Of a stretch of DNA of 64,000 nucleotides, positions 30,001-36,000 are shown piece by piece. The first letter of the stretch is position 1; each line of letters starts with the position of its first letter. The stretch is from Candidatus Babeliales bacterium (lineage in GTDB: Bacteria; Babelota; Babeliae; Babelales; JACPOV01), in assembly GCA_050250855.1 (NCBI GenBank), contig JBFWNW010000003.1, positions 128,001 through 192,000 on the forward strand, given 5' to 3'. Position numbers: made by a program.

Positions 30001-33000
30001 AAACTTACTTACCAAAAAATAATTTCCAAATTTTATAAAGAAAGTAACCAGGAATATATTTTTCTGCAGAAGATTTTACTGGATACTGTTTTTTAATTAT
30101 CTTTGGATCTCCAGTACCAGCATAGGATGACAGAATAATATTTTTAGTATCTTCATCCATACTATTATTCTGCATCAAACCAAGCTTATGCAAATTATCT
30201 ACTTTTTCTTTACCAAGAATTTCTGTTGTTATAGATTTTCGCTCTTCTTGTGCATTAGACCACAAAGAGCCCTGAAAATTATAATTTTTTTTATCTGCTG
30301 CACTATAGCGCCATGTCCAATAATAATCTGAGGCTTCAACTTTTTCTAAGCTAGACCAAACTTTATCTATTTTTTCTTGCGGCACATCAACGCCATTGCG
30401 CAATACTGTTGCTTGTACCGATAAAACCATAAAACCAGTCAATAAACTCATCATTATTTTTTTCATAAAATCCTTTATATATAAAAAAAAGGCAGACTTT
30501 CATCTGCCTTTTAAATTCTTTATAAAACTTTCAACTACGTTTAACGAGTAGCTGCAGCAACTTTTTTTGCAAGGTTGCTAATTTTGCGCTCTACGGTATT
30601 AGCGTGTAAAACGCCTTTACTTTTTGCGCGTGATAATTTTGCTTCTGCATCACGAAGTAACGTTTGCATTTCTTGTGCAGAAAGACCAGTTTCTAAAGCT
30701 GCCACAACTTTTTTTATTGCAGTCTTTATTGCTGTTTTACGCGTCAAGTTTTTTTGACGACGTCCAATATTTTGTTTTGCTCTTTTTTTGGATGACTTAA
30801 GTCTTGCCATTAAAATACCTCTATCTTAAACAACTTTTTCAACTTTACCTGCTTTTACACATTTTGTGCAAACAGCACCACGTTTTACCTTGCCTGGCTC
30901 TGTATGTAACTTGAAGCGCATGGTGTGCACATTCGGGTAAAGCCAACGTTTTACACGATTATTAGCATGGCTCACTAAATTGCCAACGGAAGGTTTTTTA
31001 TTACAAACAGTACAAATTCGTGCCATGATATATTAAATCCTTACTATAATTATGTCTTTAATACTATTACTTTACTAAAACTGATATATTTTTCAATCTA
31101 TTTTTACGTTCTGATCATGAAAAAAGCTTAAAAGCTTCCTATGCATGAGATCAGCCCCCGCTACATATGATCGATAACCAGGTATAACCGGCTTGCCTGT
31201 ATAGGTGGAAACTATACCGCCAGCCTCCTGAATTAGTATTAAACCAGCTGCCACATCCCACCACGATAAATCCTCAAAAAAGATACCATCTGCGCGGCCA
31301 CAGGCAACGTATGCCTGATCAAGCGCTATTGCTCCCAGGTGCCTAAATGCATAGGTGCGCGGCGAAATATCCTCAAGATGATGCAGCACACTCAAAAAAG
31401 CTTTACCTTTAGCATACGGAAACCCTACTAAAAAGAGAGAACGGTCCAATGAACGCTCTTTGGATACCGTAATTTTTTGGTCATTCAAAAATGCTCCTGC
31501 TCCCTTTTGAGCGTAAAAAAGCTCATCAAAAAGCGGTACATAGATCATGCCAAAAACCGGCTGCTGTTTGTAAGTCAATGCTACCGATATGCAAAAATAA
31601 GGAATACCAAACGCAAAGTTGGTGGTACCATCAAGGGGATCTATAACCCAACAATAATCCGCATCTTGATTGCCTCGCTTGCCCGATTCTTCAGCAAAAA
31701 ATGATGCTTCCGGCATCACATTGGCAAGCTCTTGCATTAAAAATGTCTCGCTTGCCAGATCAGCTTCGGTCACAAATCCCTGATCTTTTTTATCACGCCA
31801 GGTCATCTGCTTGTGATAATAGAAAAGAAGAATCTCTCCCGCTTTACGTATAATCGGCTCAACCTGTAGCTTAAGCTCTTTATGCATCAGCAAGTGCCTT
31901 ATCTGTTAAACGAAAACTTTCACGCGGTTCAATACCCAAAAGCTTATAAATTTCATCAGCATACAATGTTTCTTTTTCAAGAAGTGTTTTTGCCAAGAGA
32001 TCAAGCTTGTCGCGATTATCTTTTAATAATTTCTCAGTTCTTTGTTGTGCATCTTTGAGTAAGTTATGAACTACTTCATCAATCTTTTCAGCAGTTTTTT
32101 GTGAATACTCAAATTGGCCGTTACCTTGATTATAAACAACGGTGCCAAGCTCATCGGTCATACCATAACGGCACACCATATTACGCGCAGCATGTGATGC
32201 TTTGTTAAAATCATCAGCAGCACCAGAACTCAATACATTAAAAATAATCGTTTCAGCAACACGGCCACCTAAGGCAACCATGATATCAGCAAAAATCTCT
32301 TCTTTAGTTGCAAGATATTTTTCACGGTCAGGTAATGAATAGGAAACTCCTAATGCTTTACCTCGTGGCAAAATAGTAACCTTGTGTAAAGGATCTGCAT
32401 GATCTGGCAATAAAAGACGAATCAACGTATGGCCAGATTCATGGAATGCAACCATTTCACGCTCTTTTGGTGATAACACCACTGAACGCAACTCTTTACC
32501 TAATAAAATTTTATCACGCGCTTGCTCAAAATCTGTCATGCTTACCGTTTGTTTTTCTTGATGCTTTGTTGCAAGCAATGCCGCTTCATTGACCAAGTTT
32601 GCCAAATCAGCACCAGAAAAGCCTGGCGTTCCTCGTGCAATACGCATCAAATCAACATCAGTATCTAATTTTATTTTTTTTGCATGAACAGCAAGAATTT
32701 GCTCACGACTTTTAATATCTGGATACGGCACATCAACTCTACGGTCAAATCTGCCTGGACGCAATAACGCGTTATCAAGCATATCAGGACGGTTTGTTGC
32801 CGCCATAACAATAACAGTAGAACCTTCTGAATTAAAACCATCCATTTCTGTTAACAATTGGTTTAATGTTTGCGCTCGCTCATCGCTGCCGCCATCAAAA
32901 CCTGCAACACGCTTGCCACCAACTGCATCAATTTCATCAATAAATACTATAGATGGCGAGTGTTTACGCACTTGTGCAAAAAGCTCACGTACGCGAGAAG

Positions 33001-36000
33001 CACCAACGCCAACATACATTTCTACAAAATCTGAAGCACTTACGCTAAAGAATGGACAGTTTGCTTCGCCAGCAACTGCTTTGGCCAATAATGTTTTACC
33101 ATTACCAGGTTCCCCAACAAGCAATACACCACTTGGCAATGTTGCTCCTAGGCGACGATATTTTTCAGGATTTTTAAGAAAATCTACCACTTCCTGCAGC
33201 TCTTCTTTTGCTTCAGGAATACCAGCAACATCATCAAATTTCGTTTTTACTTGGGTAGGCATAAACATTTTTGGCTTACTGCTACTTTTACCAAGCATAG
33301 CACCACTGCCCATAGAAGCTTTTTTACGCGATTCTAAAATAGCGGTACGTGCATCAAGTAAATCTTGCATGCCAACTTTTTTCTGATTTTTCTTTGAGCA
33401 ACTAATAGCTGCTTCATTAACAAGATTTTCTAAATCAGCACCAGAAAAACCTGCTGTTTCTTGCGCTAATTGCTCAAAATCAATAGCGTCTTCAACGCGC
33501 ACTTTACGTGTATGAATTTCTAAAATTTCTTTACGTGTTTGTGTATCGGGATATTCAACCGTCACCCAACGGTCAAAGCGACCAGGGCGCAAGAGCGCTT
33601 TATCAAGCACTTCAGGAATATTGGTTGCTGCAATAACAATAACATTAGAATTTAATGCATCAAAACCATCCATTTCAGTAAGCAACTGGTTTAATGTTTG
33701 TTCACGTTCGTCATGACCACCACCAAAACCACTACCGCGAGAACGGCCAATAGCATCAATCTCATCAATAAAAATAATAGCTGGTGCATGTTTGCGAGCC
33801 TGTGCAAAAAGATCACGTACACGGGCAGCGCCAACACCAACAAATACTTCTATAAAATCTGAACCGGTAATACTAAAGAAAGGACAGTTTGCCTCACCTG
33901 CAACTGCTTTAGCTAATAATGTTTTACCATTACCAGGTTCACCAACTAATAAAACACCACGAGGAATTTTTGCGCCCAAACGGCGATATTTTTCAGGATT
34001 TTTCAAAAAATCAACGATATCGGCAAGCGCTTCTTTTGCCTGCTTTGAACCAGCAACAGAATTAAAGCCTACATTAATCATAGAAGGCATTACCATACGC
34101 GCTCGGCTTTTGCCCATATTAAAGATGCTGCTCCCACTTCCGCCAGAACCTTGTCCGCGACGGAAAAAGTACCAAACAGCTAAAGGTAAAAGTAATAACA
34201 ATGATAAAAAGACCATGTACCACATGCCATAAGAGCTTGATACCGGGATAACGTGAATATCAACGCCATGCTCTTTTAAAAGATCCCAATTTCTTGGGGT
34301 ATCAACAATCGTTGCTTCAAAGCGAGTTCCATCTTTATCATTCAAAACACCGTATACATCTTGTCCTGCTATTTGAACAGATTTTACTTTACCCTGCTCT
34401 ACCGCAGCAATAAAGCTTGAATAATGCATAGTTTTTACCTGACGAGAATAGTCAGTCAAATAGGTAAGCATAATGATACCAAACAGAAATGCCCCTACCA
34501 TAATAAGGATATTTTTTGGTCCTTTTGGTACATGATTCATGGTAAATTTGTTTTTCATACTGTCCTTAGATTAAGTTAAATAAAAAATTATGATCTATCA
34601 GTAAGAATTAGGTCTAAAAGACCGGTTGTCTTTATATTCTAATTGTACTATAAAAATTACAGAAATAAAAAGGTTTAACGCATATTACTCGTTATTATAG
34701 TAAAATAGCTTCATTTTGTCGATCTCTATCAACTAACTACTAAAGGAACCTTATAGGCAGGCGACCAGGCAGGATGGTTACAACGATCCTGTGCTGAGGT
34801 CAAAAAGGTTCGCTCTTGCGTAACAAGATTCAGTACCGCTATACGGCTAGCTGAACCTGTCTGCACTGTAAAAGCAAGATAGTTGCCACAAGGGGACCAG
34901 GTACATTCTTCTTTATGGTTTTTATCAAAGGTTACCTGTTCACTTTTTTTGGTTTTCATATCATAGACAAAAATTTGCATAGCCCCATCAACAAACGCAC
35001 TATACGCTATTTTGCCACTTTTAGCACAATAGGCTGGGCTCACACAATGGTCGCCATCGGTCAATACTTCTGTTTGCTCGGTAAATGCATGGTAGTAGCA
35101 CACCTGTGGCCCTTTTTTGTAAGCATCAGAACAAAAAATAATATCCCCATTTTCACACAACGTTGGACAAACATTATTACCATTATTAGCAGTAATTGGC
35201 CGCACTAAAGATTCATCATCTTTTTGTTCACATACATATAACTGACTTTTTCCATTCAATGAACGACAATAAATAACGCGCTTACTATCTGCAGAAAATG
35301 AAGGCAACATATTAAACCCGTCAAAATTAGAAACGAGTTTTCGTTGTTTGTGCAAATCAACCGACATTAAACGAATGTTAGAACGCGTTGCCTCCGAATA
35401 TAATAATAATGGTGAAATGCTGTCTTTGTTCCAGCGCAGGGCAAATGCTCTACCCTTTTCTACTAAGGGCGTGCAAAATTCATTATAGAGTGATTGTGCA
35501 GGATCTGCATATGGCGGTGCCAGGCAAATAGTGCGTGCTCGTTTTTTTTCACCCTGCACTTCTTTACAAAATGCAATACGAGAGGTAAAAAAGCCCTCCT
35601 GTCCTGTCAAAAGCGGCCACAATTGCCCTGCTAATAATTCTGCTCTGCAGCGCACCGGCATATCTTGTTTTGCAAAACGCTTACCGCGCACCATTGAAGC
35701 TACTTTGGTATCATACATGCGCCACTCTAAAAAATTATCCGCTGATTCAGTTATAAATACCGAAAGAGGAAAACCATCTACGGCCATCTGTTTTACTTGT
35801 TTTGTAGTAGGAACTTTTTCAAACGATTTTACCGTAACTTTAAAACCACTGGTGCGTTGGTTCGTGCGATCAAGCATAATTTTTATATACCGCGCAAACT
35901 CATCAAGTTCTGCGGTATGTTTACCAACGACACCAAGCAATAGAGGCATTTTTTGTTGCTGTTCTTGCTTGCTTTGAATGGTCATGGTTGAGGCTTGCGG

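Follow-up and report, generated by a model that had tools for sequence, protein, structure and literature searches.

The sole intact M41 protease of this genome is an FtsH that carries two complete AAA modules in tandem, and we consider it probable that it is a housekeeping FtsH with an old in-frame duplication, in which two coaxial, active ATPase rings stand on the M41 protease ring. The gene occupies positions 31880..34558 of the window (the whole 64,000 nucleotide stretch analysed here), where ORF calling and translation give an uninterrupted frame of 892 aa with an ATG start, the span including the stop codon; it lies on the minus strand, as do all features given below. Two transmembrane helices, each a hydrophobic stretch coinciding with a helix in the AF2 model (aa 16–39 at 34442..34513 and aa 112–135 at 34154..34225), are placed around the periplasmic FtsH_ext domain (aa 17–103, 34250..34510, Pfam PF06480, E 3.4e-9) and form the membrane anchor typical of FtsH. 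Module D1 with its lid follows (aa 151–408, 33335..34108), then a Gly/Ser/Lys-rich linker (aa 409–426, 33281..33334), module D2 with its lid (aa 427–685, 32504..33280) and the Peptidase_M41 domain (aa 694–872, 31943..32479, Pfam E 2.7e-59). Between orthologues, nowhere in the protein is identity lower than in the linker, and the AF2 model shows it disordered (pLDDT <50 at 413–427). Pfam finds both AAA (E 2.4e-91, best at 478–612) and AAA_lid_3 (best at 634–679) in two stretches, and the NCBIfam FtsH model TIGR01241 reaches 1189.6 bits, above its cut-off of 600, again in two stretches. One AAA module per chain is the rule in the family model and in every solved structure; this protein has two, yet it is still an FtsH by descent and position. 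The first-pass annotation had read the gene as a genuine FtsH whose two AAA modules are complete and in tandem, on which Pfam and the self-alignment of the modules agree.

Aligned as proteins, D1 and D2 share 164 of 259 residues (63%) with one gap (E 4e-126), and the corresponding direct DNA repeats, spaced 828 nt apart, are merely 71% (300 nt) and 74% (76 nt) identical; as had been argued earlier from the same module identity, this is therefore no assembly repeat. Walker A (GEPGNGKT) lies at aa 206–213 in D1 (K212/T213) and 482–489 in D2 (K488/T489), Walker B (FIDEID in both) supplies D265/E266 and D541/E542, the pore-1 aromatic residue is F239 in D1 and Y515 in D2, the sensor-1 Asn is N313 or N589, and PGRFDR contributes R324/R327 and R600/R603. 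In D1 and in D2 of all 18 full-length proteins, the Walker A Lys, Walker B Asp-Glu, sensor-1 Asn, pore-1 aromatic, DGF motif and both Arg fingers are in place, so that every catalytic and pore motif is retained in both modules, in line with the earlier account of Walker A, Walker B, pore-loop and PGRFDR motifs in each. Across a 21-sequence alignment the ATPase and pore motifs of both modules are invariant, and so are H706, E707 and H710 of the protease HExxH motif (HESGH, aa 706–710, nt 32429–32443), likewise described before as intact. Tandem modules in one chain, each with Walker A and B, sensor 1 and Arg fingers, are a feature that the protein shares with type II (double-ring) AAA+ machines.

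Among pairs with estimable dS, dN/dS (NG86) was 0.018–0.118 in D1 and 0.012–0.130 in D2, with dS close to or past saturation in many pairs; the two least saturated pairs gave 0.022 and 0.026 for D1, and 0.059 and 0.012 for D2. In most pairs conservation was higher in both modules than in the M41 domain and the N-terminal part. In 22 single-module relatives, 160 columns are conserved at 85% or more. D1 differs from them at 16 columns, most of which lie between aa 316 and the end of its lid at 410, and D2 at 20, the majority in pore loop 1 (508–515) and a relaxed pore-2 region (546–562), whilst the pore-1 and pore-2 loops of D1 are exactly ancestral. The divergence is complementary, D1 having kept the ancestral pore loops and D2 the protease-proximal lid. 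D1 is unsupported as the overall conservative copy, its conservatism holding for the pore loops only; overall, D1 is no closer than D2 to single-module FtsH (mean identity 0.676 for D1, 0.669 for D2), and the case for a division of labour therefore lies solely in where the changes fall.

The genome, which is 95% complete, contains one further M41 match, with HQAGH in place of HExxH, and in each of four relatives (G002, G005, G023 and G011), too, the only strong M41 match comes from the two-module gene. Upstream of ftsH lies a gene for a TolB-like beta-propeller protein with a PD40 repeat (34729..36063), and downstream one of the inositol monophosphatase family (31093..31893), the start of which overlaps the 3′ end of ftsH by 14 nt. 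Two-module and single-module loci have this gene order in common, so the two-module gene is a positional orthologue, and the best explanation is that it encodes the organism's housekeeping FtsH. The two-module form occurs in 18 of 61 genomes of the order, and the lid-to-AAA junction that marks it in 49 of 261 genomes of the phylum, representing 8 of 21 families. The first-pass annotation had found the form in 7 of 41 genomes, this one included; its true spread is wider. The distribution is patchy, with two-module and single-module genomes mixed in families f2, f3, f5, f13 and f19, none of three genomes with the form in family f8 (in our numbering, which may differ from the earlier one), and a gene cut by many frameshifts in relative G003. 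In the ESM Atlas, the nearest clusters of at least 50 members were all single-module FtsH of 602–658 aa, with no large two-module cluster. ClpP was not found in this genome, and strong ClpP matches occur in just 3 of 261 genomes of the phylum. We reject the extra ring as compensation for a missing ClpP as an account of the distribution, given that ClpP is absent nearly phylum-wide; the suggestion of more pulling power is without distributional support because single-module relatives lack ClpP too.

The D1 modules all fall into one clade (SH-aLRT 99) in module trees of 66 and 58 rows, and D1 and D2 of the same protein are never sisters. Identity between D1 and D2 inside one protein is 60–70% in all 18 proteins. 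A constraint placing the D1 and D2 modules of family f1 together, as a separate duplication in f1 would require, was rejected (delta lnL 67, p-AU 0.0002), and a tree separating all D1 and D2 modules from all single modules equalled the best one (delta lnL 0.2, p-AU 0.51), the groups for these tests having been chosen after the tree had been seen; what we say of the trees is based on quick trees with SH-aLRT values only and on these two AU tests. A protease-domain tree of 42 rows has unresolved deep nodes, and is compatible with a single two-module clade or with several. The module trees point to a single old duplication that preceded the divergence of eight or more GTDB families; the earlier question of whether the families share it by descent is thereby answered in the affirmative. 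One gain without reversal is possible, and in the mixed families loss of a module and transfer look alike. The event would have been an in-frame, in-place duplication of ~276 codons, comprising the linker from membrane to AAA together with the entire AAA module, in an ancestor of part of the phylum, and both copies would have been kept as working ATPases since.

In the mechanism that we favour, six chains would come together on a ring of M41 domains, which is how every known FtsH is built, and their twelve AAA modules would make up two coaxial rings, lying between membrane and chamber at the D1–D2 spacing of p97/Cdc48. We infer the hexamer from what is known of the FtsH family and the stacking from precedent; to our knowledge, all natural tandem classic-clade AAA proteins form stacked rings. 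D1, with its inherited membrane-proximal position and ancestral pore loops, would capture and pull substrates, and D2, with the inherited protease junction and altered pore loops, would hand the chain on into the chamber. The channel would be longer, with two sets of gripping loops, and we propose that it thereby offers more grip or processivity than that of a one-ring FtsH. Residues 159–667 are colinear with p97/Cdc48 D1–D2 (197–702) in one stretch (E ~1e-110), spanning 509 residues against 506 in p97, a net difference of 3, and this spacing is compatible with stacked rings. Solved FtsH chains all match either in two separate stretches or only at aa 417–882. The D2 and M41 parts of the AF2 model superpose on substrate-bound AFG3L2 (6nyy_C) with a TM score of 0.77 by target and an rmsd of 3.9 over 458 columns. 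The whole monomer has a pTM of 0.50 and an unreliable inter-domain geometry, and in a Foldseek search of the PDB its D1–D2 pair fitted p97 and NVL chains poorly (rmsd 11–12 over ~550 columns, TM 0.35–0.46 by target), so that the model says nothing either way on stacking.

The rings need not be equivalent. Slow hydrolysis or mere ATP binding is known in one ring of other type II AAA proteins (p97 D1, NSF D2), and by that precedent one ring of a double-ring FtsH, most likely D1, could serve assembly, gating or regulation, with ATP turned over slowly or only bound. That D1 and D2 have diverged at different sites, and that the relaxed pore-2 region of D2 implies non-equivalent rings, both fit such unequal roles. 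Rings that purely assemble or regulate, however, usually lose some catalytic or pore motifs, and here the Walker B Glu, sensor-1 Asn, Arg fingers, DGF and aromatic pore-1 residue persist in D1 and D2 alike in 18 of 18 proteins; the exactly ancestral pore loops of D1 are moreover hard to explain without substrate contact. We regard unequal roles as unlikely, though the most serious competitor to two rings that both work on substrate. A single planar ring, in which D1 and D2 sit side by side and three chains make a pseudo-hexameric ring over three protease domains, is improbable. The disordered linker of ~15–18 residues is flexible and in principle long enough for D1 to sit beside D2, linkers of similar length being used in engineered single-chain ClpX rings, and the AF2 monomer, at its pTM of 0.50, lacks a p97-like arrangement of D1 over D2. 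Against it, the M41 domain is fully conserved and its chamber in solved FtsH structures is closed and six-fold, the module spacing is colinear with that of p97, and relatives with four modules could not tile a six-membered ring. The changes in D1 also cluster in the lid that adjoins the protease in a one-module FtsH, which is what one would expect of a D1 that has ceased to face the protease.

In a third alternative, the extra module would be redundant, decaying or artefactual, whether a young duplicate, an assembly repeat or a D1 in the course of being lost. The patchy occurrence (49 of 261 genomes, mixed within five families) and the broken gene of G003 could be taken that way, but the copies share just 71–74% of their DNA, D1 is one clade across families with a dN/dS of ~0.02–0.12, the motifs are all intact in 18 of 18 proteins, and the gene is the genome's sole intact FtsH, which together leave this reading next to no credence. 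The earlier worry about a young, redundant copy is likewise refuted by the single D1 clade and by a constraint on D1 at least as strong as that on D2.

The claim of the first-pass annotation that this would be the first FtsH with two AAA+ rings was overstated, as sequence databases hold many FtsH with 2, 3 or 4 intact AAA modules before one M41 domain, from several phyla, among them Omnitrophota, Thermoleophilaceae and metagenome proteins. The modules of these proteins cluster together, apart from the D1 or D2 of this phylum, and their origin is independent; that separate lineages have FtsH with two, three and four modules and intact motifs shows that inserting extra modules is viable. In the literature searched we found no description of a multi-AAA FtsH with an intact protease. 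FtsH, the membrane-bound AAA protease found universally, is known as a one-ring enzyme that unfolds weakly. At about an even chance, it may instead form a natural series of one to four (or more) stacked active rings on a single chamber, evolved several times, in which D1 of this phylum keeps substrate capture on the membrane side and D2 the hand-over to the protease; if so, FtsH with three or four tiers would be the first case of an AAA+ machine that exceeds two stacked rings. The effect of a second ring on grip, processivity and substrate choice has been studied mostly in ClpA, ClpB and p97, and sister genomes with a single-module orthologue at this locus, together with the 3- and 4-module FtsH that arose independently in other phyla, offer matched comparisons beyond engineered constructs. 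The protein would also exemplify an internal duplication fixed in an essential machine, the copies having split the two interfaces of the ancestral module.

Compared with bacterial FtsH and the mitochondrial m-AAA and i-AAA proteases (TIGR01241, MEROPS M41; solved structures PDB 7tdo, 7vhp, 2ce7, 3kds, 6nyy and 6az0), the protein has the same helices, FtsH_ext, classic-clade AAA and HExxH, and its D2 and M41 model superposes on Thermotoga FtsH as it does on AFG3L2, but it has two AAA modules per chain where they have one. It shares a tandem D1–D2 in one chain with the type II classic-clade proteins p97/VCP/Cdc48, NVL and VAT, and VAT has an aromatic residue in both pores, as here. The modules, however, derive from FtsH's own module within the phylum and not from the Cdc48 lineage. 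The Cdc48/p97 model TIGR01243 scores 469.5 bits, below its cut-off of 802.65, and Pfam finds no Cdc48 N-domain family. Unlike p97/Cdc48, the protein is membrane-anchored, fused to its protease and without the N-terminal double-psi-barrel adaptor domain. To ClpAP and ClpCP the likeness is a functional analogy, two stacked rings (as proposed here) feeding a protease chamber; those machines belong to another AAA+ clade, are soluble, and have a separate peptidase, ClpP. In them, the pore loops of D1 and those of D2 are reported to divide the labour (PMC8666677, PMC7568338). Chlamydomonas Orf2971/Ycf2 is a protease-free FtsH derivative, for which two AAA+ domains are reported in some green algae (PMC9421593); it has lost M41 and bears a very long N-terminal region, whereas in the two-module FtsH M41 is intact.

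The two-module ftsH is a single open frame at 31880..34558 on the minus strand, 892 codons long and beginning with ATG. Its product contains FtsH_ext (aa 17-103), two stretches of AAA (E 2.4e-91), two of AAA_lid_3, and Peptidase_M41 (aa 694-872, E 2.7e-59) in Pfam, and the 892-aa protein scores 1189.6 bits, in two matched stretches, against a cut-off of 600 for the NCBIfam FtsH equivalog TIGR01241. The first and second AAA modules (D1 and D2) align with a single gap over 259 residues at 63% identity (E 4e-126), and each possesses Walker A GEPGNGKT, Walker B FIDEID, a DGF motif, the sensor-1 Asn and PGRFDR, the pore-1 aromatic residue being F239 in D1 and Y515 in D2; the zinc motif HESGH of the protease domain (M41) lies at aa 706-710. 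The alignable repeat pairs aa 151-408 with 427-685, starting in the linker after the second membrane helix and ending with the last lid helix, which in module 2 directly precedes the start of the protease domain. The open frame, Pfam matches, module self-alignment and motifs thus bear out the first-pass annotation, which had described an FtsH with two tandem AAA modules and an intact M41. The DNA repeat inside the gene (828 nt spacing) shows an identity of just 71-74% between its copies, which excludes both an artefact of assembly and a recent duplication.

Of 61 genomes from the order, 18 contain a full-length colinear two-module match, in open frames that measure 882-981 aa. All 18 yielded an ORF of 878-943 aa that is free of interruptions and has two Walker A motifs, a set that leaves aside G009 (gene cut by a contig end) and G003 (gene fragmented). 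We then scanned 261 genomes of the phylum with a 171-residue query running from the D1 lid across the linker into the first part of D2 (E <= 1e-35). It matched in 51, spanning the whole junction in 49; in G067 and G084 only its second half matched, in frames of 603 and 609 aa. By family, the junction occurred in G000, the source genome of the window, and 8 of the 9 other f1 genomes, 19 of 41 in f3, 2 of 4 in f2, 6 of 8 in f5, 1 of 8 in f13, all 5 of f15, both of f17 and 5 of 80 in f19, and in none of 13 other families, including f11 (0/35), f12 (0/16) and f6 (0/14). The fragmented gene of G003, a genome of the same family as G000, is a two-module ftsH (L051, contig C7, about 2262-4967) split by many frameshifts, which run from the D1 lid through D2 and leave the N-terminus, D1 core and M41 part open. 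Its fragments are still well-conserved FtsH sequence, and the frameshifts reflect either indel errors of the assembly or decay that set in very recently.

A single old duplication in the phylum is well supported by the module phylogenies, because all D1 modules form one clade, D1 and D2 of one protein are never sisters, and a constraint joining them in f1 is rejected. The D1 clade received an SH-aLRT of 99 in a tree of 66 rows and again in a 58-row tree from which six long-branch rows (L022, L029, L036, L037, L038, L046) had been taken out. When the D1 and D2 modules of f1, a group chosen after the tree was seen, were constrained to form a single clade, the log-likelihood fell by 67 units (p-AU 0.0002); a tree that separates all D1 and D2 modules from all single modules was not worse than the best (p-AU 0.51). 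The protease-domain tree was unresolved. Families in which both forms occur may reflect later module loss, transfer within the phylum, or a taxonomy which does not follow ftsH. Of the long-branch rows, L036, in G056 (contig C1, 208969-211146), is a second copy with two modules, 759 aa long and lacking the membrane/ext part, ~20 kb away from the main ftsH of that genome, with one module within the D1 clade and one among the f15 D2 modules; L022 (G041) is a divergent 791-aa protein with a short N-terminus and two modules passing the Walker A/B filter, and L037 (G022) has 788 aa, a short N-terminus and two Walker A motifs, with one module passing the same filter.

Outside the phylum, 1.84 billion representative proteins were searched, and the 150 best matches include at least 20 FtsH-family proteins that exceed the normal length and match across both modules. 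Pfam and motif scans of 25 of these long proteins revealed two modules in, for example, P0003, P0009, P0011, P0027, P0044, P0053, P0064, P0137 and P0138, three in P0002, P0005, P0006, P0010 and P0088, and four in P0008, with a single HExxH protease in each scanned multi-module protein. P0004 (1428 aa) and P0122 (1021 aa) instead carry two whole AAA-M41 units per chain, in P0004 with FtsH_ext ahead of the first unit, and arose either by fusion of two FtsH genes or as read-through in gene calling. The P0005 cluster includes NCBI records from Thermoleophilaceae MAGs, and a 1.2-Mb contig from an Omnitrophota MAG encodes a match to P0008 along its full length, at 89% identity. Counted from its first Met, the ORF at the Omnitrophota locus (L053, 1627-5598) is 1324 aa long and has one HESGH and four pairs of Walker A and B motifs, a predicted four-module FtsH; another Omnitrophota genome encodes a 562-aa single-module relative (L054). 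In a tree of 70 modules, those of each outside multi-module protein or small group clustered together, and all modules of our phylum, single or double, formed their own clade (SH-aLRT 98); the architecture thus arose many times independently. The suggestion that this would be the first FtsH with two AAA+ rings therefore goes too far, as other two-, three- and four-module FtsH of independent origin are present in databases.

The G000 genome (1.22 Mb, 11 contigs, 95% complete) has two Peptidase_M41 matches, the two-module ftsH and a weak one on a different contig, C1, outside the window (L002, about 409902-413090). L002 is an 803-aa frame with one AAA module (GPPGSGKT, FIDEIH), and because its zinc motif reads HQAGH in the HExxH position this FtsH-like protein is probably a pseudoprotease, not a protease. 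Weak-M41 frames resembling it (835-918 aa) occur in G002, G005, G025 and G027. The two-module gene was the sole strong M41 match in four of the five other two-module genomes checked (G002, G005, G023, G011), the fifth, G025, having an extra 537-aa FtsH-like frame. In five genomes without the two-module form, one FtsH of 616-653 aa fills the corresponding place; G013, among the genomes without this form, has an extra 517-aa FtsH-like frame. Two-module and single-module loci share their neighbours, upstream a TolB-like PD40 propeller and downstream an inositol monophosphatase. By position, the two-module gene is therefore orthologous to the housekeeping ftsH; it was changed by internal tandem duplication and is not an extra paralogue. 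The five genes between 30541 and 37018 of the window are all encoded on the minus strand: S20, the phosphatase, ftsH, a TolB-like gene and a weak TonB_2-like one. The phosphatase gene has a predicted TTG start, and its first 14 nt (31880-31893) are shared with the end of ftsH.

ClpP had no match in the G000 genome, which encodes two Lon genes and one ClpB-like protein. One Lon gene lies in the window at 57751-59019 on the plus strand (831-aa frame; AAA 57751-58167, Lon_C 58408-59019), the other on contig C2. Across the 261 genomes a strong ClpP match (E <= 1e-29) was found in just three, and the remaining 48 matches were weak (E 1e-4 to 1e-9, frames mostly 250-350 aa). With ClpP essentially absent, ATP-dependent proteolysis in the phylum as a whole falls to FtsH and Lon. 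A stronger FtsH may be useful in such a ClpP-poor phylum; the missing ClpP is no explanation for a two-module FtsH in some lineages only.

Both modules appear to be under constraint. Walker A Lys-Thr, Walker B Asp-Glu, the pore-1 aromatic residue, DGF, the sensor-1 Asn and both arginine fingers are retained in D1 and D2 of all 18 full-length two-module proteins, and the same ATPase/pore residues are invariant across an alignment of 21 two-module proteins. Ratios of dN/dS (Nei-Gojobori, 11 pairs) were 0.018-0.118 for D1 and 0.012-0.130 for D2 in pairs with estimable dS, and in the two least saturated pairs 0.022 and 0.026 for D1 and 0.059 and 0.012 for D2, values which are rough because dS was high or inestimable in many comparisons. 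In amino-acid identity between two-module proteins, D1 and D2 are the best conserved parts and the inter-module linker the least. The possibility, allowed by the first-pass annotation, that module 1 is a recent and redundant copy is refuted by the conserved motifs, the low dN/dS and the place of D1 among the best-conserved parts; with motifs intact in 18 of 18 proteins and D1 ratios in this range, a redundant or decaying extra module is highly improbable. The two-module FtsH is a real, old and selected variant with two active-looking motors.

How these motors are arranged can be approached by comparison with solved structures, although no solved FtsH chain with two AAA modules was among the PDB matches. 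D1, linker and D2 (aa 159-667) are colinear with D1-D2 of p97/Cdc48 (197-702) in a single stretch with a net difference of three residues (E about 1e-110). An AF2 monomer model from a 21-sequence alignment (mean pLDDT 78, pTM 0.50) has confident individual domains and two disordered linkers (aa 133-149 and 413-427). Its D2+M41 part fits substrate-bound AFG3L2 with a TM of 0.77 by target (rmsd 3.9 over 458 columns), and its D1-D2 pair fits p97 and NVL chains loosely (rmsd 11-12). Because a monomer cannot fix the relative ring position, the model speaks neither for nor against stacking. The most likely arrangement, and one we consider reasonably probable, would be a hexamer with the M41 ring as its base and D1 and D2 as two coaxial AAA tiers upon it. 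This is favoured because the M41 domain, the six-fold base in known FtsH, is fully conserved, because the D1-D2 spacing equals that of p97, because the natural tandem classic-clade AAA proteins known to us are all stacked, and because four-module relatives would be unable to tile a planar six-ring. The last point also counts against a planar trimer, which we regard as unlikely. The main rival retains the stacked rings and makes one of them mostly regulatory or structural, a possibility that we rate as clearly less probable than the two-tier motor.

The two-tier hexamer may also divide its labour. Overall, D1 and D2 have diverged equally far from the single modules found in relatives (mean identity 0.676 for D1 and 0.669 for D2), and their differences are complementary in location. 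The comparison used 160 alignment columns with conservation of 85% or more among 22 single-module proteins. Of these columns, 16 have shifted or relaxed in D1, 13 of them between aa 316 and the lid end at 410, a stretch that takes in the last lid helix, which connects to the protease in an FtsH with a single module. In D2 the shifted or relaxed columns number 20 and are concentrated in pore loop 1 (508-515, where one change is Phe to Tyr) and the pore-2 region (546-562), and D1 exactly keeps the ancestral loop sequences EVFVGVG and GRxRGSGxGGGxDER. Such a pattern would be expected if D1 had inherited the membrane-side job of the ancestral ring, engaging substrates, and D2 its protease-side junction.

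Full-text literature searches, with subscription-only papers and supplements outside their scope, found no description of an FtsH that combines two or more AAA modules with an intact protease, and a full-text term search found 'FtsH' absent from three genome papers on the phylum; one paper uses 'two AAA+ proteases' in a different sense (PMC12067869). Multi-module intact FtsH is recurrent in nature and, as far as the literature could be searched, undescribed. The Chlamydomonas protein Orf2971, an FtsH derivative, is reported to have two AAA+ domains as here (PMC9421593), but the protease has been lost, whereas the FtsH described here keeps an HESGH M41 domain. Its likeness to p97/Cdc48 lies in a D1-D2 stretch of 509 residues, colinear at nearly equal length, and that to AFG3L2 in the modelled D2+M41 part, which superposes on the substrate-bound chain.
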